64,000 nt of DNA from Acidobacteriota bacterium (GCA_036337765.1 JAYZDP010000152.1:17-64016); one strand, 5' to 3'. Positions 3,778-52,429 are shown, counted from the first letter of the stretch. A program made the numbers and translations. Notes: generated from the letters alone by a model not told the origin.

Positions 3778-3880
3778 GATCTCGATTGCGCCCCTGCTCC
3801 TGGGGCTCATCGCAGCAGCCGCATTTCCGGCCTCCGAGCCGCGACTCGTAGCCGCTGCCGAGCGGCAGGATGCTCGAGCC

Positions 3881-7521: not shown

Positions 7522-8298
7522 TCATGCCCCACCTGCCTGCTCGCGATACTCCGCGAAGCGCTCGTTGACGAAACGGATACCGAAGCCCAGGGGGCTCCCG
7601 ACCACCAAGAAACGGAACCCCCAGTCGACTTTCTGGCGGATCTCCTCCGGGTTCATGAGAATCGTGCCGATGATCTTGCCGGAGCCTTCGGCGCGCTTGG
7701 GCATCTCCTCCATGATGGCCTGCAGCTTCGAGTTCTGCATGTCGGCGGTGATCCCCATCGACGCCGACAGATCCATCGGCCCGATGAAGAGGACCTCGAA
7801 GCCCTCGACCGCCAGAATGTCGTCGATCTGCTCGTAGGCCTCGAGCGACTCCATCTGCAGACACAGCACGGTCTCGTCGTTGGCCGTGCGGATGACCTCC
7901 GGGAAGCTCTCGTTGGCAAGAGCGGCCCAGTGCGGGGAGATACCCCGATTGCCCAACGGCGGATAGCGCGCGTACTCGACGGCACGCTTCGCCTCCTCGA
8001 CGTTGGCCACCTGCGGCACCATGACCGCCACCGCGCCCGCGTCGTAGGCCTTCTTGATGTGTGCAGGGTCGTTCCAAGGCACCCGGACCATCGGTGCAAC
8101 GCCCTGCTGGCGCAGCACGATCGGGATCATCTCCAGGTCCTGAGGCCCGGCGGCCGAGTGCTCCTGGTCGATCCAGATGAAGTCGGCCTTGCAGTGATAC
8201 GCGAGCGCCGTCGCGATCCGGATGTCGTGTGCCGGCAACGCGGTGCCGAGCACCAGACGACCCTCCTCGATCTTCTTCCTCAGCGGATTCGGGTACAC
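7522..8298 (-). CDS. HpcH/HpaI-family class II aldolase (2-keto-3-deoxy-acid aldolase-like)
   Basis: Full-length similarity to HpaI/HpcH/RhmA aldolases (DFIWIDQEH, VEGFEVLFIGPMDLS). 3 nt downstream of the CoA-transferase stop. Confidence 0.8.
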   Translation of the reverse strand: MYPNPLRKKIEEGRLVLGTALPAHDIRIATALAYHCKADFIWIDQEHSAAGPQDLEMIPIVLRQQGVAPMVRVPWNDPAHIKKAYDAGAVAVMVPQVANVEEAKRAVEYARYPPLGNRGISPHWAALANESFPEVIRTANDETVLCLQMESLEAYEQIDDILAVEGFEVLFIGPMDLSASMGITADMQNSKLQAIMEEMPKRAEGSGKIIGTILMNPEEIRQKVDWGFRFLVVGSPLGFGIRFVNERFAEYREQAGGA

Positions 8299-8301
8299 GG
8301 C

Positions 8302-9528
8302 TCAGGCCTCCGTGAGGCGGGCGCGATCGACCATCTCGCGTCCCACGACACCTTCCGCCCGCAGCCCGTCGAGCTCATCACCCGACAGACCGAGATCGGC
8401 GGCGAGCACCTCGTCGGTGTGCTCACCGAGTAGGGGCGCGGCCTCGACATCGACCTCGCCCTTCGAGAAGCGCGGCCCCCAACCTAAGAGGCGCACATCA
8501 CCATGGTCCTTGTGCGTGACTTCGTGGATGAAGCCGCGCTCGATCAGATGGGGATCGCTGAACAGATCGTGGGTCTCGTACACGGCGCTCGCACACGCGC
8601 CGGACTCGGACAGGATCTCCATGCACTCGTGCTTGGTGTGCTGTTCGGTCCAGGCTCGGATCTCCGCCGACAGCTCGTTGCCGTTCTCCATCCTCAGATC
8701 GGGAGTCGCGAAGCGCGGATCGCTCTCGAGCTCGGGTCTCTCGATGGCGCTGCACACGGCCGCATACATGCGCGGGTTGACGGCCATGATGTAGACGTAG
8801 TCGTTCGGCCCACCGGGAGAACACGGATACAGCGACAGCAGCGGGTGCTCGCCGTTGCCGGTACGCGGCGTCGGCACCTCACCGTACTGGGTGCGAGAAA
8901 TGGCGGTGCGCAGGTAGTAGGTCATCGCCTCCTGCATCGACAGCTCGACCAGCTCGCCTTCGCCGGTGCGCAGCTTCTGCGCCCAGGCGGCGACCACCGC
9001 CAGTGCCGCCTGGACGCCTGTTCCGGCGTCCCCCATGGTGGCTCCAGGTCGCATCGGCGGGCCGTCGGCCTCACCGGTCACCGAGAAGGCGCCGGCGGCG
9101 GCCTGCGCCACCATGTCCATCGACTTGTAGTGCCCCCGCGGTCCGCTCGTTCCCCAGCCCTTGATGCGGACGTAAATGATGTCGTCGCGCAGCGCCTTCA
9201 GTGTGTCGTAGCCGAGCTCGAGCTTCTCGATCACGCCGGGCCCGTAGTTCTCGATGAAGACGTCGTAGTGCGGCACCATCCTGAGCAGGAGATCCCGCCC
9301 CTCCGTCGAGCGCAGGTTGAGCGTCACGCTGCGCTTGTTGGAGTTCCAGTTGACGAAGTACTCGCTGTCGATATCCTCGGCACCCGCCACGTGACGGCCG
9401 GGATCGCCAGTCGTCGGCGGTTCGACCTTCACCACGTCGGCTCCCAGCCAGGCCAAGGCCTGGGTGCACGAGGGCCCAGCCTCGAAATGGGTCATGTCCA
9501 GCACGCGCATTCCGTCCAGAGCAGCCAT
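8302..9528 (-). CDS. Family III CoA-transferase (CaiB/BaiF)
   Basis: MRVLDMTHFEAGPSCTQALAWLGADVVKVE N-terminus is typical of CaiB/BaiF/formyl-CoA transferase. Confidence 0.85.
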   Translation of the reverse strand: MAALDGMRVLDMTHFEAGPSCTQALAWLGADVVKVEPPTTGDPGRHVAGAEDIDSEYFVNWNSNKRSVTLNLRSTEGRDLLLRMVPHYDVFIENYGPGVIEKLELGYDTLKALRDDIIYVRIKGWGTSGPRGHYKSMDMVAQAAAGAFSVTGEADGPPMRPGATMGDAGTGVQAALAVVAAWAQKLRTGEGELVELSMQEAMTYYLRTAISRTQYGEVPTPRTGNGEHPLLSLYPCSPGGPNDYVYIMAVNPRMYAAVCSAIERPELESDPRFATPDLRMENGNELSAEIRAWTEQHTKHECMEILSESGACASAVYETHDLFSDPHLIERGFIHEVTHKDHGDVRLLGWGPRFSKGEVDVEAAPLLGEHTDEVLAADLGLSGDELDGLRAEGVVGREMVDRARLTEA

Positions 9529-9586: not shown

Positions 9587-12387
9587 CTAGTCGACGTAGA
9601 AGATGAAGTCGTTCGACAACAGCCCCTGCGGTGACTGCAGCTGAATCAGGTGCAGCCCCGGCTCGGCCGGCGGACTCACCAGTCGGACGCGGATCGCTTC
9701 GTCCGTGCAGTTGGGAAGCGTGCCGCCGCGATCGCAGACGGCACTCCCCGCAACACGGCGGCCGTCGACGAAGATCCGCGATCCGGGAAAGAGATGGCGG
9801 CCGAAGATACGCATCGGATTGTCTTGCGGCAGCCGTGGAAGATCCTGGACCACCTGGTGCGCGCCGGGCGTCACCGGCCGCCCCCAGATGCCCGGCTGTG
9901 GCCGATCCGGACCGACCTTGGGCGGCAGCTGGCCGGTGAGCGTGACCACCAGATCCCGGGCCGAGGCCGCGGTGAGCAGATCCTCGCGCGTCCACAGACC
10001 CGAGCCATCGCTCGCCTTGTAGCGCCGTGAGCCCGGCTTGAAGACGAACCCCACCGACACCGGCAGCGCGCCGTCCAGCCTCACCCCCTCGGTGACGAGC
10101 AGGATGGCACCGTCGGCGGCGTTCGTTTCCAGCGCGTCCAGCAACTTGGCAGTCAGCGGATTGTCCCAAGTCCTGTGATTCAGAGTCACCTGGCGTCCGA
10201 AGGCGCCGGAGGTTCCCATGCTGCCCTCGAGGAACATCTGCCAGGGCCCGCGCGGACCCCAGCCGGAGTTCATGCGGTTATCGGTCGGATTCTGGGCAGT
10301 GCCGATGGTCATGCCCCACATCGAGAGCTCGTCGAAACCCTTGGCGGCGTCGAACGGGAACTCGTTGGTTTCGCGGCTAGTCACGCTGACCAGCTCCCAC
10401 ATGTTGATGCGCCCCTGCGGCAGGATGAGCCAGCGGTCGGGCAGGCCACGAAAACTGGGGGCGTCCATACCCGAGCCCGGCGTGTTCGACGAGGTCCAGA
10501 ACGGAAACTGGTGGCACCGGCCACAGGTTTCGCGGCCACCATTGTCGTGAAACTCGAAAAAGCCCCGCTTGGCCAGCGCTGTCAGCTGATCGTCGTAGGG
10601 ACGCTCGCGGCCCGGCGGGTGGAGGATGGTGAGTAGGAACTCCCCCATCGCCGAGCGCTGTCCTGCCTCCAGCGGTCCGCGCTGGCCCGCCCGATTGCGG
10701 CGGCAGTTGCCCTGCTCGCACATCGTCGAGGCGAGGCCGCCATCGATCACATTTCGGATGCAGCTCTCGGGGGTCGTGCAGTTGGGTGCCCGAAAGGTGC
10801 CTGGGAACTCGCCGTTGATGCCGCCGAAAGGATCGCCAGGAACGCCGTCCCAGTGATACGGCGCCGTGTCGCGCACGCCCCGTACGGGCAGGGTCGATCG
10901 AGGCGGGATCTGGGTGCAGCCGGCGGTCGTGCACTGCGGGCCGCCCAGGACCCACAGCAGCTGGTCGGTATGACCGTCGGGGTGGCAGCTTTCGCAGGAG
11001 AAGGTGCCGGTGGTTGAGCCATCCTCGGCGTTGTTGAAGGCGGCGCGGCCGGCCTTGACCACTGGATCCGTCGGGTCCTTGAGGCGGATGGTCTTCAGCA
11101 CACTGGGTCTTGTCGGCGCCGCGACGTTCACCATGGAGACGCTGTTCTCCACGGCGTTGAGCACCCACGCGGTCAGCGGGGCACCGCTGGCCGCCGATGC
11201 CAGGGCCACGCCACGCGGCACGGCCTGGACCTTGACGCGTCCGAGCACGTCGCCGGTCGCCGTGTCGACGGTGAAGAGCTTGTCCGAACCCGCCGCCGTC
11301 ACCGCCAGGGTCGAATCGTCGCCGCTGACCTGGATGCCGAACGGCGTCGCCAGCGCCATTCCCTGCTTCGGGTTGTTCGGCGGCAAAGGCTCGAGATCGA
11401 AGGCCGACGGTTTGCCGCAGCTCGCGCCCTTGCAGCTGACGACCCCGATCTGGTTCAGGAAGGCTCTATTCTCGAGATCGCGGAGCTCGTGCTTCTTGGT
11501 ACCGGCACGGCCGTTAGCATCGTTGCGAGCTTCGGTCTGCGAGATGAAGACCTTGCCATCGGAGTCGACCGCCACGCCGTAGAGGAGGGTGCCGACCGAG
11601 GAGACGACGTCGACTAGCGATTCGTTCTTGGTGTCGAAGACGAACAGATCCCTATCCGGAACCCGTGGATCGCGAACGATGTCGGCGTCGTAGCCGAGCG
11701 ACAGGACGTTGTTGTTGTCGACCACGTGCTCGCCGAGGTCGAAGGTGCACTGGTCACCGTCGATGCCGCCCTGAAACTCGAAGCAGCCGGCGAGCTCGGT
11801 CTGGTTGCCCGACTCGAAGGCGACTACGTAGAGCCGGTTGCCGCGCACTGTGATCGCGCGCGGGTCCTGGGCCGCGATCTCGAGCCGCTTCGTCACCTTG
11901 CGGGTCTTCACCCGCACCACCGCGATCTTGTTGGTCGACGACAGCGCGACGTAGGCCTTGGCGTTGTTGGCGAACGCGACCCCGACCGGCTCGTCGAAGC
12001 GGGTCGAGCGACTCGCCGAGTGGAAGAGCTGCACGGTGTCGACGACGTGGTGGAAGGTGCGGCTCGAGGGGTCGGAGTCGATCACGCTCACGGAGTCGGA
12101 GAGGTGGTTGGTGACCCAGACCTCCAGCCCGTCCGGCCGGATGGCAATTCCCACCGGCTCAACTCCGACCGCAATCCGATCGACGATCTGGCGACCTAGG
12201 GTGTCGATCACATCGACCGTCCCAGAAGGGGTGTTCACGACGTAAACGAGGGAGCCATCCGGATGCAGCTCGATCGGCTGCGCATGGGGGCTCAAGAAGC
12301 TGGCGGTGCCAGGCTTCATGGCGACTACGACGGTCGCTGTCGCCATCCCTATCGCCAGCAGCAACGCGACACGGTCGAGCCTCACAG
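9587..12387 (-). CDS. Secreted YVTN beta-propeller repeat protein with C-terminal di-heme cytochrome c peroxidase/MauG-like region (two CxxCH)
   Basis: YVTN-type repeats (YVVNTPSGTVDVID, WVTNHLSDSVSVID). CESCHPDGH and CGRCHQFP heme motifs. Track ORF starts at 12697, but its first ~100 aa are Arg-rich overlap with the Gfo gene. Likely GTG start at 12385-12387 overlapping the upstream TGA (GTGA), followed by the signal peptide RLDRVALLLAIGMATATVVVA. Confidence 0.6.
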
Positions 12388-13812
12388 CGTCCACCCGTCC
12401 CGGTAGCGGTAGTGCAGATGGGCGTTGGCGTCGGGACGGTTCGGGATCGTCATGTTCTCCGCATCCCATGCTAGCGTATCCTCTGGGAACATCAGCGCGA
12501 CGTTGCCGAGCATGGCGATCTCGGTCAACGGGCCACCGTGGCCGAAGTGCGAGCCCGCCACCTTGTAGCCCCTGCAGGCCTGCAGGAAGTCCTCGTGGTG
12601 CTCGAAGTTGTTCGGCATCCCGACGCCACGCTCGTCTTCGACGCGTGAGCGGTCCGCCATGTACTCGTCCATGCGCTCCTCGGGAAGGATGCGCCACTGC
12701 GCAGCGCCGTGGGAGGCGTATGTGATCTTGCCTCGATCGCCGACCACCAGTCCGCCGACCGCACCGCGACCGCCGAGAAGCGGAATCGACACCTCGTCGG
12801 GCCCGAGCTCCTCGGGATGTGGCGGTGCGAAGACGTCGCCGTCGTACCAGTACATGGTCAGAGCCGGGCGCACTCCGCCATTCGCGAGCTTCGCCTCTGG
12901 AAACTCGAAGCGCACCTTGGACGACCGCGGGAACGTATCGCCGTGCTTTTGCGGGTCGTAGCCGTCAGCCACTTCGGCGTGCACCGAACTCGGTGCCCCA
13001 AGCTGCAGGGCGGTGAAGACCGGGTCGACGATATGGCAGACAAAGTCGCCGATCATGCCCGAACCGAAGGCACGGAAGCAGCGCCAGAGTCCGGGGTGGT
13101 ACAGCGGGTGGTACGAACGCTCGGCCGCCGGACCCAGCCACCTGTCCCAGTTCAACGACTTCGGCACCGGATGCTTCTCCTCGAGGCGCGGCAGATCTTC
13201 GATGCGGCTGAAGTTGAACGCCGCCTCGACCACGTGGATCTCGCGCACGGTACCGATCACGCCAGACCAGATGGCTTCGCAGAACTCGTGATTCGAGGCG
13301 TACGAGTGTCCCTGGTTGCCAAGCTGCGTCGCCACGCCGTGGTAGACGGCGGCCTCTTGGAGGCGACGGACTTCATACATGGTGTGCGCCAACGGCTTTT
13401 CGCAGTACACGTGCAAACCATGCTCCATGGCCGCAAGCGAGATCAGGGCATGGGCGTGGTCGGGGGTGGCGACGATCACGGCATCGATTCCCTTTTCCTC
13501 GTCGAGCAGACGGCGGAAGTCGTCGTAGCGCTCGGCCTTCGGAAACATCTCTACGACCGACTTCGGAGCCTCGTTGTCGACGTCGCAGAGAGCCGCGATC
13601 TTGCTGCCCGCCAGGTCAGAGGTGCGCACGTCGAACCGGCCCATCGTTCCGAGCCCGATTCCGGCGACGTAGACCGTATCGCTAGGCGCGGTGTTGCCAG
13701 GGCCTCCGAGCACATGCCGTGGCACGATCGCGGCGGACGCGGCACCCGCCGCGGCGGCCGTGGCTGCGCCCTTCAACAGATCGCGACGGGTAAGGTTCTC
13801 GATCTCTTTCAT
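12382..13812 (-). CDS. Gfo/Idh/MocA-family NAD-dependent oxidoreductase, Tat-exported (GH109-like)
   Basis: Tat signal RRDLLKGAATAAAAGAA. Rossmann GxGxxG (YVAGIGLGTMG). EKP motif (YCEKPLAHT). ATGA overlap with the sulfatase gene. Confidence 0.8.
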   Translation of the reverse strand: MKEIENLTRRDLLKGAATAAAAGAASAAIVPRHVLGGPGNTAPSDTVYVAGIGLGTMGRFDVRTSDLAGSKIAALCDVDNEAPKSVVEMFPKAERYDDFRRLLDEEKGIDAVIVATPDHAHALISLAAMEHGLHVYCEKPLAHTMYEVRRLQEAAVYHGVATQLGNQGHSYASNHEFCEAIWSGVIGTVREIHVVEAAFNFSRIEDLPRLEEKHPVPKSLNWDRWLGPAAERSYHPLYHPGLWRCFRAFGSGMIGDFVCHIVDPVFTALQLGAPSSVHAEVADGYDPQKHGDTFPRSSKVRFEFPEAKLANGGVRPALTMYWYDGDVFAPPHPEELGPDEVSIPLLGGRGAVGGLVVGDRGKITYASHGAAQWRILPEERMDEYMADRSRVEDERGVGMPNNFEHHEDFLQACRGYKVAGSHFGHGGPLTEIAMLGNVALMFPEDTLAWDAENMTIPNRPDANAHLHYRYRDGWTL

Positions 13813-15221
13813 GGGCTCGCTCCTCGTGCGGCGGCCGCCTGTTCACGCTGGCGCATCCATTCGATTCGTCTCTCCTCGATCCACTCACCGGACGTGCGAT
13901 CGAAGAGATCCGGACGGCGGGTCGCCGGAGCAACGTCGTCGGTGTCTTTCTGCCACTCGCCTAACACCGCGCGCAACTCGGCGAGAGTTGCGGCATGGAC
14001 CGGGAGACTGGCGAGATTGTGGAGGGAAAAGGCATCGAACTCTAGATCGTAGAGCTCTTCTTCAGGCCTCGGCGAGAGGAAGGTCGTCGACTGCTCGGGA
14101 GGGAGCTGGCCGCTACGGTGGAGGTGAACCATCGCCCGGTAGGTGATCGAGCGCACCGCGTCGCGGGGTGGGTTGCAGCTCAGGTCGTTGTACTCGTTAC
14201 GAACGTAGAGGTGACGTTTCGTTCGTACCGAACGCGCGCGAGCCGCATAGTCGTGCCAGTTGCGCTCGGCGAAGACGTGCTCACGATGCTCGCGGCGAGG
14301 GCTCTCGAGGATGCCGGCGAAGGAACGACCCTGGTGCGAGTCGAGCGGATCGAGGCCGGCGAGATCGAGGATCGTGGGGGCGATGTCGACTGCGCTGATC
14401 AGACTCGCGGTCGTCGAGCCCGCCTCGGCGACGCCTGGCAGCCGCACGATGAACGGCGTGCGGATGCCGCTGTCGTACAGCGTCGTCTTCGAGCGCGGAA
14501 ACGGCCGGCCGTTGTCGGACAGGAAGAGAACGAACGTGTTCTCCGCGGCACCCTGCTGCTCGAGCTCGGCGAGCACATGGCCCACCGCGCCGTCGAGGCG
14601 CGCGATCTCGTCGTAGTAGAGGCGGAGGTCGGCGCGAGTAGCCGCGTTATCGGGAAGAAACGGCGGCACCACCACATCGTCGTCGCCATGGGGAACGGCA
14701 ATGATCCCCTCCTCGTAGTCGCGGTGCGGATCATTGGCCGCGAACCAGAAGAAGAACGGTTGGTCGCGCGGTCGCTCACGCAACACTCTCGACCATTCCT
14801 CACTGCCTCCCGCACCCCCGCCGACCACGAGATCGAACTTCGGCCGCGTTGCGTCGCCGAGGTGCCACTTGCCGGCGGCTGCCGTGTAGTAGCCGAGGTC
14901 GCGCAACGGCTCGGTCACGATCACCTGCGAGGCGGGCAGCGGGAGGTGCAGCTCCGCCGCGCCCGTCGAGTGCGGGTAGCGGCCCGTAAGGATGCTCGAA
15001 CGGCTCGGGCTGCACGAACTGGTGGTCAGAAACGCCCTATCGAAGCGCATGCCGTCGCGGGCGAGCCGGTCGATATTGGGCGTGCGGATGTGTGGATGCC
15101 CATAGGCCCCGGCGTCGTTCCACGCCATGTCGTCGGCGACGAAGACGATGAAGCTCGGCGGCGCCCCACCCCCAGCGGAGGATGAGGCCACCATCAGCAG
15201 GGCCACGAGTATGGGGCTCAC
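13809..15221 (-). CDS. Sulfatase (formylglycine-dependent)
   Basis: Signal peptide. C-x-P-x-R sulfatase signature CSPSR in TTSSCSPSRSSILTGRYPHSTG. Confidence 0.85.
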   Translation of the reverse strand: MSPILVALLMVASSSAGGGAPPSFIVFVADDMAWNDAGAYGHPHIRTPNIDRLARDGMRFDRAFLTTSSCSPSRSSILTGRYPHSTGAAELHLPLPASQVIVTEPLRDLGYYTAAAGKWHLGDATRPKFDLVVGGGAGGSEEWSRVLRERPRDQPFFFWFAANDPHRDYEEGIIAVPHGDDDVVVPPFLPDNAATRADLRLYYDEIARLDGAVGHVLAELEQQGAAENTFVLFLSDNGRPFPRSKTTLYDSGIRTPFIVRLPGVAEAGSTTASLISAVDIAPTILDLAGLDPLDSHQGRSFAGILESPRREHREHVFAERNWHDYAARARSVRTKRHLYVRNEYNDLSCNPPRDAVRSITYRAMVHLHRSGQLPPEQSTTFLSPRPEEELYDLEFDAFSLHNLASLPVHAATLAELRAVLGEWQKDTDDVAPATRRPDLFDRTSGEWIEERRIEWMRQREQAAAARGASP

Positions 15222-15224
15222 GCT

Positions 15225-17153
15225 CTACTCGGGGTTCACCCAGATCGGCGAAGACCAGGCGCGCTCCTGGAGCGTGGCCTGCACGTCCCGGCGGGGCTCG
15301 ACGCCCTCCTGTAGGGCGTCCCAGGTCGACCAACGGCAGGTCGGGTTCTCGAGCACGCGTACGTAGTAGAAAGCCCTTAGCGACGGGTCGAAATCGGGAT
15401 CGCTCCAGGTCGCCTTAAGCTCGTCGGCGCCCCCACCGGAGGGCTCACAGGTAGCGAGATCGACCGAAGCGCCGTTGTCGGGACAACGGTGGGTGTCTGG
15501 ATCGACGGCCGCACCATCGGAGCAGGCCACGTCGTAGACCCGCTCGTCGGTCGCGCCGTCCGACGACCAGCCCTTGATGATCTGCACCCGGTCCAGGGGG
15601 GCTGCCAACGCATCGCGCAGCGCCCAGACCGCGAAGCTCGGCGTCGCGCCGACGTCGGCCGCATCGAGCTCACCGCCCATGGGCACCGCCTCTGCGTAGG
15701 CGCGGGTCAGGAAGTCGTCGGAGTCGAGATCCGCGGTCTCGAACGCGCCGCCGCCGAAGAAGCGCACGCGGATGCGAGGCCCGGAGGTCGAGAAGGTCTC
15801 CTTGCGACGAAACGCCTGAAAGATGGCCTCGCGGGTGTTCTCCTCTGCCCACACTCCGGCGAGACCCGAGGCACCCCAGGTGTAGTAGTAGGTGTCGCGA
15901 TAGGTTCGGCCCGAGCCGTCCTGAGTGCGGATCGCCGAGTCGGAGCGCTCGGCCGCGGTGTCGAACGACGCGTTCGCGCCACCGCCGGGAACCGAGCCGC
16001 GCAGCTGCGCGGTGGCGTCAAGAATGCCGACCTTGGACCAGTAGGTCTCCTCGTTGTACGAGCCGGCGGCGACGTGAGTGTCGCTCGAACCGATCACGCC
16101 GACCTTGTAGGGGTTTTGCACCCCCCCGTCCTCGATCGCGAGTCCACGGCGGAGCGCGTTGCGCACGTAGCTGCCGGGGGGGTCACTGAGCTGGTAGCTC
16201 GCGACCTTGTACGGCATGATCTCGAACTCGGCCCACTCGTCGTTGGGAGACAGCGCCGGGTGAGTGTCAGAGGTGCCCTTGACCTGGGTGTTCTCGACAA
16301 TCGGCTCGTTGCGCATGCGGGTTTCGGAGTAGGCCTGGTCGATCGCCCCGCCGTCGTAGTACTCGAGTTCGAACATCCGCCCGCCCGAGCCGTTCGAGTT
16401 GTGGGGGATCGCCAACGAGTCGATGCCCCGCTCGCGCCAGGCGTCCATCGCCGCCCACAGATCTTCGGGATTCTGTGAGTCGAGGCGACTGAAGGGGGCT
16501 TCCGGAGCGTCCGAGCCGCGAAAGATCACATTACGGTGCAGGTTGTTGCGCTCACCGCCTGAAGAGGTGTACTCGTAGCCGATGAAGGCGGTGAACGTGC
16601 CGGGATCGTTGTGGCGCTCAGCCGCATCGACGATCTCGGACCAGGCACCCTTGACGATGTCGAGGTCGAAGTGCTCCTCGGTCCCCGCGTCGCCACGCAG
16701 ATACGGGCCCATGCCGACGAAGTTCGCCCGGCGCTCGTCGGCCAGTTCGGCGGACCGCACACCCTCCGCGACGGGATGGTCGTAGGCCCCGGAGTCCGGG
16801 TCGGTCATCGCCGGCAGCATCCCCAGATACATGCCGTGGTCCGCGACGGCCTGAAAGTCCAACGGACGGTCGAGCTTGAGCTCGAAGCCGGCAGGATGCT
16901 GGATGCCCTTTCCCTTCGCGAACTCGTAGGCGTCGTTCGCGTCGGCCTTGGTGCCGAAGATGAAGGCGTCGAAGGAGTAGCGCGTGTGCACGTGCACGTC
17001 GCCGAAGTAGGCGTCGCGCGTCGGATTGGGGGCACTGGCGGCGGAGGGTTCGCTTGCCGACGAGCCGTCGGCGGGCGGAGCATCTTCCGGCGCGCCACAG
17101 CCCAGAGCTAGTGCAAGGCCAAGGCACGCGGCCGCCGAAACGATCGTTCTCAT
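15225..17153 (-). CDS. DUF3604-family lipoprotein with PHP-like HxH metal motif
   Basis: Lipoprotein signal ...ALALGC. YFGDVHVHTRYSFDAF PHP-like motif. Paralog of 37831..39738. Stop lies 4 nt from the sulfatase start. Confidence 0.7.
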   Translation of the reverse strand: MRTIVSAAACLGLALALGCGAPEDAPPADGSSASEPSAASAPNPTRDAYFGDVHVHTRYSFDAFIFGTKADANDAYEFAKGKGIQHPAGFELKLDRPLDFQAVADHGMYLGMLPAMTDPDSGAYDHPVAEGVRSAELADERRANFVGMGPYLRGDAGTEEHFDLDIVKGAWSEIVDAAERHNDPGTFTAFIGYEYTSSGGERNNLHRNVIFRGSDAPEAPFSRLDSQNPEDLWAAMDAWRERGIDSLAIPHNSNGSGGRMFELEYYDGGAIDQAYSETRMRNEPIVENTQVKGTSDTHPALSPNDEWAEFEIMPYKVASYQLSDPPGSYVRNALRRGLAIEDGGVQNPYKVGVIGSSDTHVAAGSYNEETYWSKVGILDATAQLRGSVPGGGANASFDTAAERSDSAIRTQDGSGRTYRDTYYYTWGASGLAGVWAEENTREAIFQAFRRKETFSTSGPRIRVRFFGGGAFETADLDSDDFLTRAYAEAVPMGGELDAADVGATPSFAVWALRDALAAPLDRVQIIKGWSSDGATDERVYDVACSDGAAVDPDTHRCPDNGASVDLATCEPSGGGADELKATWSDPDFDPSLRAFYYVRVLENPTCRWSTWDALQEGVEPRRDVQATLQERAWSSPIWVNPE

Positions 17154-17369
17154 CTCTTTTCCTCCAGTGAAGAAGCGAATCTACCAGTCCCGCCCACGAG
17201 CCGATCGCTTCACGACGATCGTTCGGGATCGAGAGCGAGCCCTACTGGTGCGTCCGAAGATCCTAGGACCCCCGGCGAGCGCCATCTGTGAGTGGCATGC
17301 GGACCGACTGTATGCAGCTGAGATCGACGGCCAACGCCGGGGTTAGGATCGGCGGGGCGAGGCACGACA
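17154..17369. promoter_or_regulatory. Divergent promoter region between the DUF3604 operon (-) and the Tat-sulfatase gene (+)
   Basis: 216-bp non-coding spacer between opposed start codons. Contains the partial palindrome GCATGCGGACCGACTGTATGCAGC. Confidence 0.3.
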
Positions 17370-18923
17370 ATGACCAAGATCGGCAGGCGCGACTTCATCA
17401 AGAACGTAGGCGTGGCCACCACGACGTTCGCGGTATCCCGTTCACTGCGGGCAGACAGGAACGACACCAACCGACCTAACGTCGTCTTCATCCTCGCCGA
17501 CGACATGGGCTACGGCGACATCACGAGCTTGAACAGCGACTCGCAGATTCCCACGCCGAACATCGACCGCCTGACGAAAGGGGGGCGCTACTTCACCGAC
17601 GCCCACTCCCCATCGGCGCTGTGCACACCCACCCGCTACGGCGTACTGACCGGCCGTTATTGCTTCCGCACCCGCGTCAAGCGCAGTGTGCTGTGGGGCT
17701 ACAGCCGCCACCTGATCGAGCCCGAGCGGACAACGGTCGCCTCGCTACTGAAATCGCAGGGCTACAACACCGCCTGCATTGGCAAGTGGCACCTCGGCAT
17801 GGACATGCCCGCGCCGGGCGGCGGCCGCATCCCGGATCCGGATCACAGGGTCGACCGGCGCGCCTACAAGGGCGCGGTCGACTGGAACGCCACGATCGAC
17901 AACGGTCCTCTCTCGGTAGGCTTTGACACCTACTACGGCATCCCGGCATCGCTCGACATGTACCCCTACATCTGGATCGAGAACGACCGTTTCGTCGGCG
18001 AGTGCACGGCCGAAGACGACCTGCTCTTCATTACCGAACAGACCCGCGGCCAACGCTACGGCGACAACATCGGGCCCGCTCATCCCGACTTCCGAGCCGA
18101 CGAGGTGATGCCCACCATCACTCGCAAGACGGTCTCCACCATCGAAGAGCAGTCTGCGGAGACTCCGTTTTTCGTCTACATGTCCCTGACCGCGCCGCAC
18201 ATCCCGATCGTGCCTTCAGCGCCCTTCCGCGGCCGCAGCGAGATTGGCCCCTACGGCGACTTCTGCATCGAGGTCGACGACGGCGTCGGGCAGGTGCTCG
18301 ACGCGCTGGAGCGCAAGGGGCTCGCCGAGCAAACCCTGGTCGTGTTCACCGCCGACAACGGCTGCGCCCCTTACATCGGTGTAGAGGACATGAACGAGCA
18401 GGGCCACTACCCGTCCTACATCTACCGCGGCTACAAGTCCGACATCTACGAGGGAGGCCACCGCGTTCCCTTCATCGCCCGCTGGCCACAGCGCATTCCG
18501 GCGGCGACGCATTCCGACGAGACCATCTGCCTCACAGATCTACTGGCCACCTGCGCGTCCATCACCGACACCCGCCTCACGCAGAACGCCGGCGAGGACA
18601 GCTACGACATCTTGCCGGCGTTGGTGGGGGGACCGCTGGAGGAGCCGATCCGCGAAGCCACCGTGTCCCAGGCCGGCGATGGCTCCTACTCGATCCGCCA
18701 GGGCCGCTGGAAGCTCGAGCTCACGCCTAGCTCCGGCGGCTACGACCGGATCAGCCCGGACGAGGCACGCAAGAAGGGCCTGCCGGCGATCCAGCTCTAC
18801 GATCTGTCCGCAGACATCGGCGAGCGCACCAACCTCTACGACCGCAACCCGGAGGTCGTCAACAGCCTGAAACGGCTGCTCGAGAAGTACAGGCGAGAGG
18901 GACGAAGCGCCCCGCACGCCTAG
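17370..18923 (+). CDS. Sulfatase, Tat-exported
   Basis: Tat motif GRRDFIKNVGVATTTFAVS. Sulfatase signature CTPTR in SPSALCTPTRYGVLTGRY. Confidence 0.9.
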   Translation: MTKIGRRDFIKNVGVATTTFAVSRSLRADRNDTNRPNVVFILADDMGYGDITSLNSDSQIPTPNIDRLTKGGRYFTDAHSPSALCTPTRYGVLTGRYCFRTRVKRSVLWGYSRHLIEPERTTVASLLKSQGYNTACIGKWHLGMDMPAPGGGRIPDPDHRVDRRAYKGAVDWNATIDNGPLSVGFDTYYGIPASLDMYPYIWIENDRFVGECTAEDDLLFITEQTRGQRYGDNIGPAHPDFRADEVMPTITRKTVSTIEEQSAETPFFVYMSLTAPHIPIVPSAPFRGRSEIGPYGDFCIEVDDGVGQVLDALERKGLAEQTLVVFTADNGCAPYIGVEDMNEQGHYPSYIYRGYKSDIYEGGHRVPFIARWPQRIPAATHSDETICLTDLLATCASITDTRLTQNAGEDSYDILPALVGGPLEEPIREATVSQAGDGSYSIRQGRWKLELTPSSGGYDRISPDEARKKGLPAIQLYDLSADIGERTNLYDRNPEVVNSLKRLLEKYRREGRSAPHA

Positions 18924-25624: not shown

Positions 25625-25693
25625 GCGTTCCTCCGCAACGAGTCTCGACGTTGTTCGAGAAGTGAAGTGTACTGTCGCTACCATTGCGAGCCG

Positions 25694-34574: not shown

Positions 34575-36566
34575 TTAGTCCCCCTCGGCGAGTGCCAGGG
34601 CGACGAGCTCGCTGGTCTGGCCGGGGCCGCCGAGCGGCACGACGATGTACTGGCGTCCCTCGTGGACGTACGTCATCGGGGCGCCGGTGGCTCCACCGCC
34701 GTCGAGCTGCATCTCGAAGACGCGCTCACCGGTTCGTTTGTCGAAGGCGCGGAACCCATGGCCGCCGACCCAGTCCCAGCCTTTGAAGGGCGCCCCGACC
34801 ATCGCCCGCTCGCCGTCGGCGCTGAAGAGCAGGGTCTTGGTCAAAAGCGGCGCGGCTCGACCCATGTTGCCGAGCGGCGGTAGGTCGAGGCCGGCGAGCT
34901 TGGGATGATCGCGCGGACCGTCGCCGTTGGCCGCGACCCATAGATGCTCTCCAGTGTCGAGAGCGATAGCGGTGATGCGGCCCCATGGAGGCTTGATCGC
35001 AGGAATCTCGCCCTCGAGGCCGACGTCGACCCACTCATTCTCCCAGCCGATCCGTGCGTCGACGTAGTCGACGTTTGCACGGGCGGGATCGACCGGCGGG
35101 TGCAGCCCGCGGATGCCATGCAAGTAGGTCACCGAAGGAACGTAGACGACGTGGGTCTCGGGGTCGTAGGCAGCGCCGCCCCAATTCGTGCCGCCTACCA
35201 TCGACGGCACCTGGATGTAGCCGCGGTAGCCGCCCCAGCCCTCGGGGATCGGCGGATCGAAGAGTGGGCCGATCTTCCACTCGGAGAGCACCGCCATGGC
35301 CTCGGCACGAAGCGCGGGGGTGAAATCGATCAGGTCGTCAACGCCGAGCCCTTGCAGGTCGTAGCCCTTCGGCCAGCTCGGGATCGGTTGCGTCGCCGCG
35401 GCCACCTCGCCCGGCACCCTCGACGCTGGCACCGGGGTCTCGACAATCGGCCAGACCGGCTCCCCCGTCACCCGGTCCAAGACATACAGAAAGGCCTGCT
35501 TCGACGCCTGCGCCAGGGCCTTTATGGGGCGGCCGTCAACGACAATGTCGGCGAGGATCGGGGCACAGGCGAAGTCGTAGTCCCACAGGCCGTGGTGCAC
35601 GGTCTGGAAATGCCACTTCAGCTCTCCGCTGCGCGCGTCGAGGGCGAGGATCGACTCGGCATGGAGGCCGTCGCCCAGACGATGACCGCCGTAGGTGTCG
35701 TTGTTCGGAGTCGTCGTTGGCGCGTAGACCATCCCGAGGTCCTCGTCACAGCTCATCCAGGCCCAGACGTTTGCGTGCCCGGTGTAGTCGGCGGAGCCGT
35801 CGTCCCAGGTCTCGTAGCCCGCCTCACCCTTGCGCGGGATGACGTGGAAGGTCCACAGCAACTCGCCGCTGCGCGCGTCATAGCCGCGCAGCATGCCCGG
35901 CAGGGCGCGCCGGTAGGCACCACCGGCAATGTCTCGCGTCGAGTTGCCCAAAACGACGGTGTCGTTGCAGACCACCGGCGGCGACGTCCAGCTGTAGTAG
36001 GGAATGCGCTCGCCGTCCCCCGCGTCGTGCCCGTCGGCGGCGCCGCCCTCGCCAAAGCCCGGGGCCGGCAGCCCGGTCTCGGCGTCGAGCGCCATCAGCC
36101 GACCATTGGCGGTGAAGAAGAAACGCTTCTTGGGGCCGTCTCTCCAGGACGTACCGCCGCGCAGCATGCGAAACCCGATGTCGCGCAGTGACGGCGACTG
36201 GCCCTCGCGGTAGGGATCCCAGAACCAGATCGACTCGCCGGTGGCGGGATCCAGCGCCGCTGCCGCACCCAGACCGGTCGCCATGAGCAGGCGACCATCG
36301 TCGTAGACCGGCGTGGTCTCGAAAAGCGCCGCAGGCTTCAAGGTGATGCTCTCGCCGAGACCGTAGTCTGGCGACTCTCGTCGCCACGCCACCTCCAGGC
36401 GGTGCACGTTGCCGGCGTGGATCTGATCGGCGCGCGAGTACTTGGTCGAGGCGTTGTCGCCCGCGTACTTCGGCCAGTCGCCGTTCTGCGCCACCGCAGG
36501 AGCCGCCGCGGCCGTGGCCACGAGCAGCACGAGGCACAGCCGCGGCCGAGCAATCGGAACACCCAT
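34575..36566 (-). CDS. PQQ-dependent dehydrogenase, beta-propeller quinoprotein, secreted
   Basis: Signal peptide. WxxYxGD...Y start (GDWPKYAGDNASTKYS). W-docking propeller repeats. 663 aa. Confidence 0.85.
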   Translation of the reverse strand: MGVPIARPRLCLVLLVATAAAAPAVAQNGDWPKYAGDNASTKYSRADQIHAGNVHRLEVAWRRESPDYGLGESITLKPAALFETTPVYDDGRLLMATGLGAAAALDPATGESIWFWDPYREGQSPSLRDIGFRMLRGGTSWRDGPKKRFFFTANGRLMALDAETGLPAPGFGEGGAADGHDAGDGERIPYYSWTSPPVVCNDTVVLGNSTRDIAGGAYRRALPGMLRGYDARSGELLWTFHVIPRKGEAGYETWDDGSADYTGHANVWAWMSCDEDLGMVYAPTTTPNNDTYGGHRLGDGLHAESILALDARSGELKWHFQTVHHGLWDYDFACAPILADIVVDGRPIKALAQASKQAFLYVLDRVTGEPVWPIVETPVPASRVPGEVAAATQPIPSWPKGYDLQGLGVDDLIDFTPALRAEAMAVLSEWKIGPLFDPPIPEGWGGYRGYIQVPSMVGGTNWGGAAYDPETHVVYVPSVTYLHGIRGLHPPVDPARANVDYVDARIGWENEWVDVGLEGEIPAIKPPWGRITAIALDTGEHLWVAANGDGPRDHPKLAGLDLPPLGNMGRAAPLLTKTLLFSADGERAMVGAPFKGWDWVGGHGFRAFDKRTGERVFEMQLDGGGATGAPMTYVHEGRQYIVVPLGGPGQTSELVALALAEGD

Positions 36567-36626: not shown

Positions 36627-37757
36627 TCAGGAGCGATCATCGAGTTCGATCGGGCGACCCTCGTCGATCGATCGATGCGCGGCAACCCCGATCGCCACGG
36701 CGAGAGCTCCGTCGCGCACACTCACTGCGACCTCTCGCTCGCCACGGATCGCATCCGCGAAGTGGCGGTGCTGCCAATACGTCGAGCCGTGATGGTGCCC
36801 TGCCGAGAGCAGGTCTGCCTCGACCGGGATCACGACCTCCTCGACGAGGTCGGAGCGCATGCGTCGCGGCTCGGAGTCGGAAGGTTCTGCGGCGGCGAGA
36901 TCCCGCCTACCGACGCGCACCAGCGACTGCGGCAAGAAGCACTCGACCTTGCCCCGGTCGCCTGTGACCACGATCTCCTGCTCGTGCTCGGATGCCTCGG
37001 CGAACATGCAGAGATCGAGCAGGCCGCGCACGCCGTCCTCGAAGTCGACGACCACGAAGGCGTTGTCGAGAATGTCGGGTACGCGGCCGTCGTAGCGCTC
37101 GTCGAGGTGGTTGACGTCCTGGGCGCCGGAGGCGAAGACCCGCAGGGGTCGCTTGCCCACGATCTGGACCATCAGGTCGAAGAAGTGACAGCACTTCTCC
37201 ACCAGGGTGCCGCCGGTGTTGTCGTTGAAGCGGTTCCAGTCACCGATCTTGGGCAGGAACGGGAAGCGATGCTCGCGGATCGCCACCATGACCGGGCGCC
37301 CGACGCTCCCTCCGCGCACTTCCTCGATCAGCCGAGCGACGGGCGCCATGTAGCGGTACTCCATTCCCACCCAGACGAGACCGGGATGATCCTGGGCCCG
37401 CTCGCGCACCCGCTCGCAGTCCTCGTTGGTGGTGCAGAGAGGCTTCTCGACCAGCAGGTGGAGCCGATGCCCCCACAGCTTCTCGAGGACGGCCCCATGG
37501 GTGTGATTCGGCGAAGCGATCACCACCGCGTCGAGCTCTCCAGCGGCGGCAAGCTCCCCGGCAGCTTCGTAGAGGGCGATCTCCTCGCCGAGATGCCGCC
37601 TCGCCCTCAGGCGCGACTCAGGGCGCGGATCGGCAACCGCCGTCACGCGGACGCGCAGGCCGTGCTCGCCCAACAGCGTGAGGTTGCGCGCGTGCTCGGC
37701 GCCCATCAGGCCGTAGCCAGCGATGCCGTAGCGCAGAACTGGCGGCTGAGTAGTCAT
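36627..37757 (-). CDS. Gfo/Idh/MocA-family oxidoreductase, cytoplasmic
   Basis: LRYGIAGYGLMG Rossmann motif. VEKPL motif. No signal peptide. Start chosen at MTTQPP. Confidence 0.85.
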   Translation of the reverse strand: MTTQPPVLRYGIAGYGLMGAEHARNLTLLGEHGLRVRVTAVADPRPESRLRARRHLGEEIALYEAAGELAAAGELDAVVIASPNHTHGAVLEKLWGHRLHLLVEKPLCTTNEDCERVRERAQDHPGLVWVGMEYRYMAPVARLIEEVRGGSVGRPVMVAIREHRFPFLPKIGDWNRFNDNTGGTLVEKCCHFFDLMVQIVGKRPLRVFASGAQDVNHLDERYDGRVPDILDNAFVVVDFEDGVRGLLDLCMFAEASEHEQEIVVTGDRGKVECFLPQSLVRVGRRDLAAAEPSDSEPRRMRSDLVEEVVIPVEADLLSAGHHHGSTYWQHRHFADAIRGEREVAVSVRDGALAVAIGVAAHRSIDEGRPIELDDRS

Positions 37758-37830
37758 GTGCGCTAGAGGATCCCACGGCGGGCTCGCGGGCTGCGAACGT
37801 GTCAGGATCCGGCCATCGAAGGAGATCGCG

Positions 37831-39738
37831 ATGCGCCGCTTTTCAGCCTTGCTCCTGATCGGAACCCTGATGACCGCCTGCTCCGGAGGCGACGACAACG
37901 ATGGGACATCGTCGCCGGGCGAGCCCGAAGCGCTGTCGACGGCCGCGCTCAGCCCCGCCGATCGCAACGCCTACTTCGGCGATCTGCACATCCACACCCG
38001 CTACTCCTACGACGCGTTCGTCTTCGGCACCCGCACCGGTCCCGACGACGCTTACGAGTACGCCAAGGGCAACCCGATCGAGCACCCGGCCGGCTTCGAG
38101 CTCAAGCTCGACCGGCCGCTCGACTTCCTCAGCGTCTCGGACCACGCCAACTACCTCGGCATGCTGCCGGCGATGCTCGATCCCGAATCGTCGGCCTTCG
38201 ACCACCCCGCAGGGGACATCGTGCGCAACGCCCGGACGCCCGCTGAGCGGCAGGGAATCTTCGCCGCCATGCAGCCCTACGTGCGTATCCACGAAGGCGA
38301 GGACCCGTCGATCCGCGGGCATCTCAAGATGGACGTGGTGCGCTCGGCCTGGGAGGAGATCATCGCCTCCGCCAACCGCCACAACGATCCGGGGCGATTC
38401 ACCGCCTTCATCGCCTACGAGTACACCTCGGCCGGAGCCGGAGGCATTTACGAGAACCTGCACCGCAACGTCGTGTTTCGCGGCGATCGCGGCCCCCAAG
38501 CGCCGTTCTCTCGACTCGACTCCTACAACCCCGAGAACCTGTGGGCGAAGATGGACGAGTGGCGCGCCGACGGTATCGAGGCGCTCGCCATTCCCCACAA
38601 CACCAACGGCTCCGGCGGCCGGATGTTCGAGTACGAGTATTTCGCGGGTGGCGCGATCGATCGCGCCTACGCCGAGACCCGGATGCGCAACGAGCCGCTG
38701 GTCGAGATTACCCAGACCAAGGGCACCTCGGAGACTCATCCGGCGTTATCGCCCAACGACGAGTGGGCAGACTTCGAGATCATGCCCTACCGGGTCTCTA
38801 CCCGCATCCACTCAGAGCCGCCAGGCAGCTACGTACGCGACGCCTATCGCCGGGGTCTGGAGATCGCTGAGGGTGGAGTGCCGAACCCCTACAAGCTCGG
38901 CGTGATCGGATCCAGCGACACGCACGTGTCGGCCGGTGCATTTCGCGAGGAGGAGTTCTGGGGTGCCTCGGGCCTGACGACCGAGACGCCCGAGCAACGG
39001 GGCTCACGGCCGAGCCCCGATCCCGGCTCGGAGAGGTTCACGATCGACGACGGCAGCAGTCGGATCTTCCGCGACACGCCCTCGACCACCAACGGCGCGT
39101 CGGGTCTTGCGGGTGTCTGGGCCGAGCACAACACTCGTGACTCGCTTTTCGATGCGATGCGGCGCAAGGAGACTTTCGGCACCTCGGGAACGCGCATCCG
39201 GGTGCGCTTCTTCGGCGGCGCGGGCCTCGGCGGGCTGAGCGTCGACGATGGGGACCTGGTGGCCAAGGCCTACGCCGGAGGCGTGCCCATGGGCGGGGAT
39301 CTCGGCCCCGAAGCAGAGGCTCCAAGCTTTCTGATCTGGGCGATGCGCGACGCTCAGGCCGCGCCGCTTCAGCGCCTGCAGGTCGTCAAGGGGTGGTGGT
39401 CGGACGGCAAGAGTCACGAGGAGGTGATCGACGTCGCCTGCTCGGACGGTCTCACGGTCGATGCCGACACCGGGCGCTGCCCGGACAACGGCGCCTCGGT
39501 CGACCTTGCGACCTGCGAGCCCACCGGCGAGGGCGGTGCCAGCGAGCTGAAGGTGCTCTGGACCGACCCCGACTTCGACCCCGGCCAGCGCGCCTTCTAC
39601 TACACCCGCGCGTTGGAGAACCCGACCTGCCGCTGGTCGACCTGGGACGCCCTGCGGGCCGGCATCGAGCCCCGGCAGGACTTTCCCGCGACGATTCAGG
39701 ACAGAGCCTGGTCCTCCCCGATCTGGTTCACCCCCTAG
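37831..39738 (+). CDS. DUF3604-family lipoprotein with PHP-like HxH motif (paralog of 15225..17153)
   Basis: GGAG RBS. Lipoprotein signal LLLIGTLMTAC. YFGDLHIHTRYSYDAF. Confidence 0.7.
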   Translation: MRRFSALLLIGTLMTACSGGDDNDGTSSPGEPEALSTAALSPADRNAYFGDLHIHTRYSYDAFVFGTRTGPDDAYEYAKGNPIEHPAGFELKLDRPLDFLSVSDHANYLGMLPAMLDPESSAFDHPAGDIVRNARTPAERQGIFAAMQPYVRIHEGEDPSIRGHLKMDVVRSAWEEIIASANRHNDPGRFTAFIAYEYTSAGAGGIYENLHRNVVFRGDRGPQAPFSRLDSYNPENLWAKMDEWRADGIEALAIPHNTNGSGGRMFEYEYFAGGAIDRAYAETRMRNEPLVEITQTKGTSETHPALSPNDEWADFEIMPYRVSTRIHSEPPGSYVRDAYRRGLEIAEGGVPNPYKLGVIGSSDTHVSAGAFREEEFWGASGLTTETPEQRGSRPSPDPGSERFTIDDGSSRIFRDTPSTTNGASGLAGVWAEHNTRDSLFDAMRRKETFGTSGTRIRVRFFGGAGLGGLSVDDGDLVAKAYAGGVPMGGDLGPEAEAPSFLIWAMRDAQAAPLQRLQVVKGWWSDGKSHEEVIDVACSDGLTVDADTGRCPDNGASVDLATCEPTGEGGASELKVLWTDPDFDPGQRAFYYTRALENPTCRWSTWDALRAGIEPRQDFPATIQDRAWSSPIWFTP

Positions 39739-50391: not shown

Positions 50392-50399
50392 GAGCACCT

Positions 50400-52361: not shown

Positions 52362-52429
52362 CCGGCCCCGGTAGACAGCCAGTGCGGGTGTACGATCCGC
52401 AGCGCATACCTGGATCAAGGAGACTGCAC

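Follow-up and report, generated by a model that had tools for sequence, protein, structure and literature searches.

Do four exported proteins encoded by tightly packed genes on one strand act together, and if so, on what? The question is raised by a 64-kb stretch of DNA (the window, 64,000 nucleotides) from the metagenome-assembled genome of an uncultured Acidobacteriota bacterium (GCA_036337765.1 JAYZDP010000152.1:17-64016). Its minus strand carries, from 17153 down to 9587, the genes named g1 to g4 in transcription order: a DUF3604 protein, a sulfatase, a Gfo/Idh/MocA oxidoreductase and a beta-propeller with a di-heme module. The genes were found to form a real string that is probably co-transcribed, and the third product is related by sequence to glycoside 3-dehydrogenases. 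The four-gene string is a local, lineage-specific assembly and not a conserved pathway module. The reading preferred here, held tentatively and with somewhat less than even confidence, is an operon peculiar to this lineage whose products work in the periplasm, scavenging small sulfated sugars, glycosides or polyols through desulfation and oxidation.

Gene organization

The DUF3604 gene g1 occupies 15225..17153 (-) and encodes 642 aa from an ATG start. It is followed by the S1 formylglycine sulfatase gene g2 (13809..15221, -; 470 aa, GTG start), by the Gfo/Idh/MocA gene g3 (12382..13812, -; 476 aa, ATG start) and by the YVTN propeller/di-heme gene g4 (9587..12385, -), which lies in a maximal open reading frame (ORF) of 9587..12697. 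The minus-strand codon statistics of the four are gene-like, with GC3 of 0.81-0.85 against GC2 of about 0.5. Because of this codon-position GC and the strong family matches, g1 to g4 were taken as the genes and the overlapping plus-strand ORFs were not. ORFs, codon statistics and family matches all agree with the initial annotation, which had described four tightly packed minus-strand genes.

The ATG of g1 at 17153 is preceded by a GGAGG Shine-Dalgarno sequence. At its other end, the TAG stop is separated from the GTG start of g2 by a 3-nt spacer (AGC), and the frame is identical. A single interrupted ORF was considered for g1 and g2, given the common frame and only TAG and AGC in between; it was rejected, as DUF3604 homologs stop at the same C-terminus. 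The g2/g3 junction is an ATGA overlap with the Shine-Dalgarno sequence GAGGAG 7 nt upstream, and the TGA of g3 shares GTGA with a GTG at 12385 (codon 12385..12383). The overlaps and short spacers proposed earlier were thus confirmed, but the start once given for g4, 12387, is out of frame and is replaced by 12385. In the public annotation g4 begins at ATG 12346 (919 aa), which leaves a 35-nt gap and loses the signal peptide. A start at GTG 12385 or GTG 12394 gives back the n-region and the hydrophobic core of that peptide, and these two are favoured over 12346 because homologs carry longer N-termini. The more plausible start, 12385, was taken; 12394 is also possible.

Genes in the same direction continue past 9587, the end of the string in the initial annotation. 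A gene for a cytoplasmic CoA-transferase of family III (8302..9528, -; Pfam CoA_transf_3 1.5e-105) begins 58 nt past g4 with its own Shine-Dalgarno sequence GGGAGGGG, and an HpcH/HpaI aldolase or citrate-lyase-beta-like gene (7522..8298, -; Pfam HpcH_HpaI 5.8e-27) follows 3 nt later. Terminator-like sites along the run did not exceed shuffle expectation, and the g1-g4 transcript may continue into both genes.

All four products are predicted to be exported: g1 would be a lipoprotein, while g2 and g4 would take the Sec route and g3 that of twin-arginine translocation (Tat). The periplasmic location assigned to them earlier is plausible from these signals.

The oxidoreductase g3

The product of g3 combines the Pfam domains GFO_IDH_MocA and GFO_IDH_MocA_C2. 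Its Tat signal scored 21.1 bits against TIGR01409 (cutoff 16.7), with TRRDLLK in the translation, in agreement with the earlier call of a Tat-exported member of this family. The motifs GIGLGTMG (GxGxxG), EKP and DFVCH (D-x3-H) were recognised. The best NCBIfam match was NF058561, BT_2158_fam (1e-106, 357.4 bits; residues 9-462 aligned to profile positions 2-435 of 487), with a score under half of the 750-bit equivalog cutoff. Full-length alignments were obtained with the structures 8tdf (2.5e-68) and 8tdh (6.8e-65). By sequence, g3 is classed as a relative of BT2158-type glycoside 3-dehydrogenases and not as an equivalog.

The initial annotation had given g3 the architecture of GH109 alpha-N-acetylgalactosaminidases. 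These NAD-dependent enzymes and g3 have in common Tat export, the Gfo/Idh/MocA fold and the Rossmann NAD site. However, the C-terminal substrate domain of g3 is of another type, and only the Rossmann region (residues 46-189) aligned to the GH109 structure 6t2b (3.5e-5, 25.9 bits), which was outscored by 45 other Gfo-family structures. Full-length similarity to a characterised GH109 enzyme, including the C-terminal substrate domain, was not found, and the assignment was dropped. Since the amino-sugar substrate had been deduced from it, that proposal loses its basis too.

BT2158 of Bacteroides and its Alistipes counterpart AL3 are exported by Tat, bind NAD firmly and convert glycosides to 3-keto-glycosides by oxidation at C3; cleavage is then finished by a lyase together with a DUF1080 hydratase, and the cofactor is recycled via reduction of 3-ketoglucose (PMC8121099; bioRxiv 10.1101/2024.03.25.586180). 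The likeness of g3 to these proteins (NF058561; 8tdf, 8tdh) extends over the Tat signal, the Gfo/Idh/MocA N-terminal domain, the C2-type C-terminal domain and the full length of the alignment, and by homology g3 would be expected to bind NAD tightly and to be exported folded. The surroundings differ. The pathway partners of these enzymes (a DUF1080 hydrolase, a sugar-phosphate-isomerase-like lyase and a second Gfo protein) were found neither near g3 nor in nine homolog contexts, and the neighbours of g3 are instead a sulfatase, a DUF3604 protein and a di-heme propeller.

Glucoside 3-dehydrogenases of the ThuAB and LacABC types pass their electrons to cytochrome c, LacABC being a flavoprotein-cytochrome complex. 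The coupling of periplasmic sugar oxidation at C3 to a heme protein is an established design. The present operon differs from it in having neither ThuA nor a flavoprotein among its four genes, and in that g4 carries a CCP-like enzyme module and not a simple class I cytochrome.

ThuAB is a known pair that forms 3-keto-disaccharides. In one homolog context (L098:9039-11392) a gene of the ThuA family shares 4 nt with the start of a g3 homolog of 58% identity, an arrangement that favours sugar C3 dehydrogenation as the role of the g3 subfamily. A 357-aa YncE-like propeller gene and a Rieske protein gene lie convergent downstream of the same homolog. A metagenome scan with g3 returned a lone 2.3-kb fragment.

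The sulfatases

The formylglycine sulfatase call for g2 was upheld. The translation has a short signal peptide and the maturation motif CSPSR, and Pfam matches were obtained to Sulfatase (PF00884; 3.2e-47, 161.7 bits, cutoff 25) and SGSH_C (8.7e-16, 58.9 bits, cutoff 29.3), so that g2 is assigned by sequence to the S1 Cys-type formylglycine sulfatases. The nearest solved relatives were S1_8A (1.5e-54), S1_8B (2.1e-45) and human N-sulfoglucosamine sulfohydrolase (SGSH; 8.6e-42). The protein is accordingly described as S1_8-like, a designation based on these relatives and on SGSH_C and not on SulfAtlas models. S1_8A is described as a monosaccharide galactose-2-sulfate sulfatase (bioRxiv 10.1101/2025.01.09.632246). 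With the S1_8 sulfatases (human SGSH and the Pseudoalteromonas lambda-carrageenan 2-O-sulfatases S1_8A/B/C) g2 shares the CxPxR motif and the Sulfatase and SGSH_C domains; it differs from them in lacking a glycoside hydrolase or polysaccharide-utilisation locus around it. In the scan of window ORFs no gene for a formylglycine-generating enzyme came to light.

A second S1 sulfatase, S1_15-like, is encoded divergently from g1 at 17370..18923 (+) (Pfam Sulfatase 1.7e-45; CTPTR motif). Its nearest solved relatives were 7oze (1.8e-79), the GalNAc-6-O-sulfatase 6s20 (2.9e-70) and S1_15A (7.7e-69). Its N-terminus, MTKIGRRDFIK, is of the twin-arginine type, and Tat export of an S1 sulfatase is uncommon enough to be recorded. 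The 216 bp between this gene and g1 (17154..17369) are presumed to be the promoter region; a sigma-70 consensus was looked for there and no match was obtained.

The DUF3604 protein g1

The assignment of g1 to DUF3604 stands on a full-length match to PF12228 (E 3.4e-216, 719.7 bits, profile positions 2-591 of 591). The signal peptide ends in LALG|C, and the Cys that follows LALG (Cys19) is invariant across 43 homologs; g1 is therefore predicted to be a lipoprotein. Also invariant in the 43 homologs are H54-x-H56, D105-H106, E194, H206, H251 and D358-x-H360, residues that recall the metal site of the PHP family. PHP-family phosphoesterases, for example YcdX and histidinol phosphatase, use a trinuclear metal site. 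The likeness lies in the N-terminal D-x-H-x-H-T...S and ...A-x-x-D-H patterns and in the further invariant E, H, H and D-x-H. On the other hand, no significant match of g1 to PHP proteins was obtained by HMM, profile or fold search, and DUF3604 proteins are about 640 aa long, with large insertions and a C-terminal beta-sandwich. The PHP Pfam domains gave no match in 43 DUF3604 members, and hhalign against an unverified sequence of E. coli YcdX gave a non-significant probability of 1.6%.

No solved relative of DUF3604 was found in the PDB by phmmer, profile search or Foldseek. The AlphaFold2 (AF2) model of g1 was of good confidence as a whole (pTM 0.81); in Foldseek its C-terminal beta-sandwich gave a non-significant match to UNC119/RhoGDI (E ~0.01, TM 0.35), which was not relied on. 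A literature search on DUF3604 yielded a single mention, which was not relevant.

The propeller/di-heme protein g4

In g4 a signal peptide precedes a YVTN-type beta-propeller of seven blades; next come a di-heme module resembling that of CCP/MauG proteins (CESCH, CGRCH) and, at the C-terminus, beta-sandwich domains. The propeller matched PDB 1l0q (3.4e-47), and both CxxCH motifs were invariant in 40 homologs, in agreement with the earlier description of a propeller with two heme c sites. The AF2 model (pTM 0.85) had hydrazine synthase beta as its best fold match, with a TM of 0.80 for the propeller. The family profile found hydrazine synthase beta (4.7e-16) and gamma (3.9e-5), and di-heme peroxidases weakly.

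Direct searches were blank: g4 itself did not match Pfam CCP_MauG (PF03150) at E <=0.1, and phmmer of its C-terminal half against the PDB returned nothing. The CCP/MauG link emerges only when the profile of the family is used or its homologs are scanned with Pfam. Of 40 family members, 36 matched CCP_MauG at E <=0.1, and five homologs, including the closest one (67% identity), passed its gathering cutoff of 25.6 bits with 25.7-28.9 bits, the match covering only positions 1-69 of the 149 in the profile. The heme module of g4 is probably CCP/MauG-like, of enzyme type and not a plain electron carrier.

Both hydrazine synthase beta/gamma and the di-heme CCP/MauG proteins resemble g4, in which a di-heme module comes after the propeller and, in the region of its first heme, matches CCP_MauG and hydrazine synthase gamma. 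In contrast to hydrazine synthase, g4 consists of one chain, lacks an alpha subunit and bears additional beta-sandwich domains at its C-terminus, and its host is not an anammox bacterium. The g4 family is moreover very large, with 2,271 matches at E <=1e-5 among the candidates scored, many of them about 53% identical over the full length and spread across phyla. Some members are fused to other domains, another difference from hydrazine synthase and CCP: a C-terminal pyrroloquinoline quinone (PQQ) glucose/sorbosone dehydrogenase domain is present in 20 of the top 120 homologs, and CBM4_9, dockerin or FG-GAP in others. No described function was found for this type of propeller/di-heme protein.

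Proposed role and conservation

In the preferred reading, sulfated-sugar scavenging, the S1_8-like g2, aided by the divergent S1_15-like sulfatase, would remove sulfate esters, as judged from the nearest characterised relatives. By homology to BT2158 and AL3, g3 with tightly bound NAD(P) would then oxidise a ring hydroxyl to a ketone. More speculatively, g4 could be the redox partner, taking up electrons or using peroxide, and the DUF3604 protein, as a putative metal-dependent enzyme with PHP-like motifs, might act on an ester or keto-intermediate in a hydrolytic or lyase step. The link to carbohydrates is helped by the sugar-type relatives of both sulfatases, by the glycoside-3-dehydrogenase-like nature of g3 and by the fusions of the g4 family to PQQ sugar dehydrogenase and CBM4_9; a redox role of g4 draws its support only from those fusions to PQQ sugar dehydrogenases and carbohydrate-binding modules (CBMs). 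The tight junctions with their Shine-Dalgarno sequences, terminator-like sites no more frequent than by chance, the export signals of all four proteins and the ThuA overlap and DUF3604 proximity of Gfo homologs also speak for this reading.

The gene neighbourhoods of homologs were compared from three sides. From the g1 side, 80 DUF3604 loci of species-representative genomes (50-76% identity to g1; up to 10 kb on each side where the contig allowed; 1.38 Mb) were searched by local tblastn with 40 window proteins. From the g3 side, nine distinct contexts (54-69% identity) were compared by tblastn, and three contexts were available for g4 (67%, 63% and 56% identity).

Several results of this comparison and of the window itself weigh against sulfated-sugar scavenging. 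The 80 DUF3604 loci yielded neither type of Gfo homolog and none of g4, even at E 1e-3, and an S1 sulfatase was present in five of them, adjacent in one. The closest g1 orthologs (70-76% identity) are without all three partners. The three g4 contexts have no neighbours in common with the operon or with each other. Synteny with the window reaches further in two g3 contexts (L096, L097; Kelch 68%, PSD/PSCyt 48%, ankyrin, DUF1552, PQQ), and their Gfo gene has none of g1, g2 and g4 alongside. Glycoside hydrolases, TonB/SusCD transporters and transporters for sugars were not found among the window ORFs scanned, and neither a DUF1080 protein nor a sugar-phosphate-isomerase-like protein was found in about 40 window ORFs or the nine Gfo contexts. 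Furthermore, an NAD enzyme, which carries hydride, needs a mediator to reduce heme, and the recurrent neighbours of the Gfo and DUF3604 families are CoA and beta-oxidation enzymes: enoyl-CoA hydratase (ECH), CoA-transferase, short-chain dehydrogenase/reductase (SDR), acyl-CoA dehydrogenase (ACAD) and PhyH.

As the set is not conserved from the g1, g3 or g4 side, the string is regarded as lineage-specific, and only a loose proximity of Gfo and DUF3604 genes recurs. In three of the nine g3 contexts, from two lineages, a DUF3604 gene stood at most 6 kb away from Gfo, at distances of 2-6 kb. Two of these contexts are syntenic and from Pseudomonadales, with DUF3604, ECH, methyltransferase, Gfo and a convergent sulfatase in 7-9 kb; in one of them a beta-lactamase-family gene stands between Gfo and sulfatase. 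Theirs were the only sulfatases near Gfo (two of nine contexts, one lineage), and they are non-orthologous to g2, with 24% identity and a different S1 subfamily. In the other lineage (L092) DUF3604, Rotamase_2 and HupE genes are 6 kb from the Gfo gene. No g4-family gene was found in the nine contexts; small NHL, YncE-like or Kelch propellers adjoin the g3 homolog in three.

Operon conservation, proposed as a check in the initial annotation, therefore failed from all three anchors for the four-gene set, and what remained of it is the Gfo and DUF3604 pair in two other lineages. Of the two outcomes that the initial annotation had named as refuting it, a Gfo protein outside GH109 has come about; homologs of the four genes that never occur together elsewhere is strictly not the case, given that pair. 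Because of this, the operon context, which had been offered as a handle on DUF3604 function, is a weak one.

A different arrangement proved to be the truly conserved DUF3604 operon. In about 20 of the 80 loci a PpiC-type Rotamase_2 protein is encoded 6-60 nt downstream of DUF3604 and is followed by an overlapping gene for a HupE_UreJ_2 membrane protein. These loci were found among L018-L080, for example at L019:4791-8581, L059:12177-15874 and L092:14351-18231, and their hosts are mostly marine Alpha- and Gammaproteobacteria, with one Vicinamibacterales. Neither partner is present in the window. The arrangement hints that DUF3604 is a metal-dependent periplasmic enzyme, associated with a Ni/Co-type transporter and a dedicated folding helper. 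Tandem DUF3604 paralogs also recur at DUF3604 loci. The closest g1 orthologs belong to Thermoanaerobaculia, "Ca. Multivorans", Holophagales, Vicinamibacteraceae and Bryobacterales.

Alternative explanations

The strongest alternative is that the operon is one of position only, i.e. four independent exported enzymes from expanded families with no common substrate or pathway. It is a serious but doubtful possibility. The DUF3604, Gfo, sulfatase, PQQ and CoA-transferase families are all multiple within the 64-kb window, conservation is absent from the g1 and g4 sides, and the Gfo-adjacent sulfatase of Pseudomonadales is of a different subfamily. With 10-20 DUF3604 copies per genome, the chance of two independent Gfo-DUF3604 proximities in eight contexts was put, by our own estimate, at roughly 0.02-0.08, so that the recurrence is suggestive and not conclusive. 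Against independence, co-expression is implied by the overlapping stops and starts and their Shine-Dalgarno sites, and genes expressed together usually have related functions. Moreover, all four products are destined for one compartment, the sugar-type dehydrogenase has a carbohydrate-type sulfatase on either side, and the Gfo-DUF3604 proximity recurs in unrelated phyla.

A second alternative, considered unlikely, is that the operon serves to break down the sulfate of a lipid-like alcohol (an alkyl, isoprenoid, steroid or cyclitol sulfate). Desulfation would release a secondary alcohol, Gfo would turn it into a ketone in the periplasm, and the carbon skeleton would be passed to CoA-dependent degradation by way of the CoA-transferase and HpcH lyase past g4 and the many beta-oxidation genes in the vicinity. 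The same-strand run does extend to these two genes. The homologs of g3 are found amid ECH, SDR, acetyl-CoA hydrolase/transferase, an MFE-2-like protein, PhyH and CoA_transf_3. Among the recurrent neighbours at the 80 DUF3604 loci were SDR (10), CoA-transferase III (7), ACAD (7) and PQQ dehydrogenases (5), and the window itself contains ACAD, thiolase, ECH and aldehyde dehydrogenase (ALDH) genes. However, both sulfatases are nearest to carbohydrate sulfatases and not to steryl or alkyl sulfatases, and the only characterised relatives of g3 act on glycosides. In addition, these genomes are so rich in CoA-enzyme families that their proximity means little.

It is very improbable, though of interest, that DUF3604 is the missing metal-dependent eliminase or hydratase partner of a subfamily of Tat-exported NAD-bound 3-dehydrogenases, the two providing a second, non-Koshland way to break glycosidic bonds or sulfate esters, and that g4 re-oxidises the cofactor or the keto-intermediate. 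If true, it would give first functions to DUF3604 and to the very large heme-propeller family.

The model of the initial annotation, in which a GH109-like glycosidase, a sulfatase and DUF3604 desulfate and hydrolyse a sulfated amino-sugar glycan while the heme protein serves as electron sink, agrees with the Tat signal and Rossmann NAD domain of g3, with the SGSH_C domain of g2 and its similarity to human SGSH and with the resemblance of the divergent sulfatase to GalNAc-6-sulfatases, but it is highly unlikely in view of the partial GH109 match beside full-length matches to 3-dehydrogenase-type structures, of the glycoside 3-dehydrogenase as best NCBIfam match, of the polysaccharide-utilisation hallmarks not found in the window and of the four-gene set that is not conserved.

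Every family in the operon is already known, three by function class and DUF3604 by name only. The operon as such is close to no described pathway: it is without the partners of BT2158 and the Alistipes proteins, it is not a GH109 system and it is not a polysaccharide-utilisation locus. If the four proteins cooperate, they would provide a compact test bed for DUF3604, a highly conserved family of periplasmic lipoproteins that numbers thousands and for which no relative has been solved. Cooperation would also bear on the re-oxidation of Tat-exported NAD-bound sugar dehydrogenases outside Bacteroides and on the role of the widespread proteins that join a propeller to CCP-like di-heme modules. 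The more reliable lead for DUF3604 is its operon with the PpiC-like and HupE-UreJ genes in marine Proteobacteria, which points to a periplasmic enzyme dependent on Ni/Co or another metal. That module is possibly more useful than the operon itself, as are the size of the hydrazine-synthase-beta/gamma-like di-heme propeller family and its fusions to other domains.

Other features of the window

Overall, the window contains two DUF3604 genes, two Gfo/Idh/MocA genes, two S1 sulfatases and one LtaS-like protein. CoA-transferase III genes, two in the window, lie on both sides of the cluster. The oxidoreductases include three PQQ alcohol dehydrogenases, one PSCyt1-GSDH (cytochrome-GSDH) fusion and a sulfite-oxidase-like molybdoenzyme with a Tat signal. 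These form an island of periplasmic oxidoreductases (34575-36566, 40649-42412, 50340-54058, 57863-59110), and genes for ALDH, ACAD, thiolase and ECH are interspersed among them. SDR proteins, pairs of PSD/PSCyt and DUF1552 proteins, and ankyrin and Kelch proteins were also found.

The second DUF3604 gene (37756..39738) is 62-64% identical to g1 and lipoprotein-like (MRRFSALLLIGTLMTAC), with a likely start near 37831. It is divergent from the second Gfo/Idh/MocA gene (36627..37967), whose product is cytoplasmic, without a Tat signal, 27% identical to g3 and different in its C-terminal domain. PQQ alcohol dehydrogenase genes at 34575..36566 (-) and 40649..42412 (-) flank this pair. At 42480..44573 a 697-aa polytopic membrane protein is encoded, with a partial C-terminal domain of the sulfatase/phosphodiesterase superfamily and no CxPxR motif; by sequence it looks like an LtaS or phosphoglycerol transferase and is easily miscounted as a third sulfatase. 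A second copy of the module, made up of these DUF3604, Gfo and "sulfatase" genes and the PQQ propellers, was considered and rejected, the Gfo protein being unlike g3 and the "sulfatase" LtaS-like.

Genes for PSD/PSCyt (a planctomycete-type cytochrome c domain), DUF1552 and ankyrin-repeat proteins adjoin g3 homologs at L096:16003-21422 and L097:11571-16830. The order in L097 is Gfo, PSD/PSCyt, DUF1552, ankyrin, and the window counterparts (5-5206, 28926-32113) are 7-20 kb from g3, a placement that suggests local rearrangement. At 24608-26428 the maximal ORFs of a Kelch-repeat protein (-) and a Sulfotransfer_5 protein (+) overlap, while their domain-coding parts do not. This places a sulfotransferase of the Sulfotransfer_5 family a few kb from the sulfatases.

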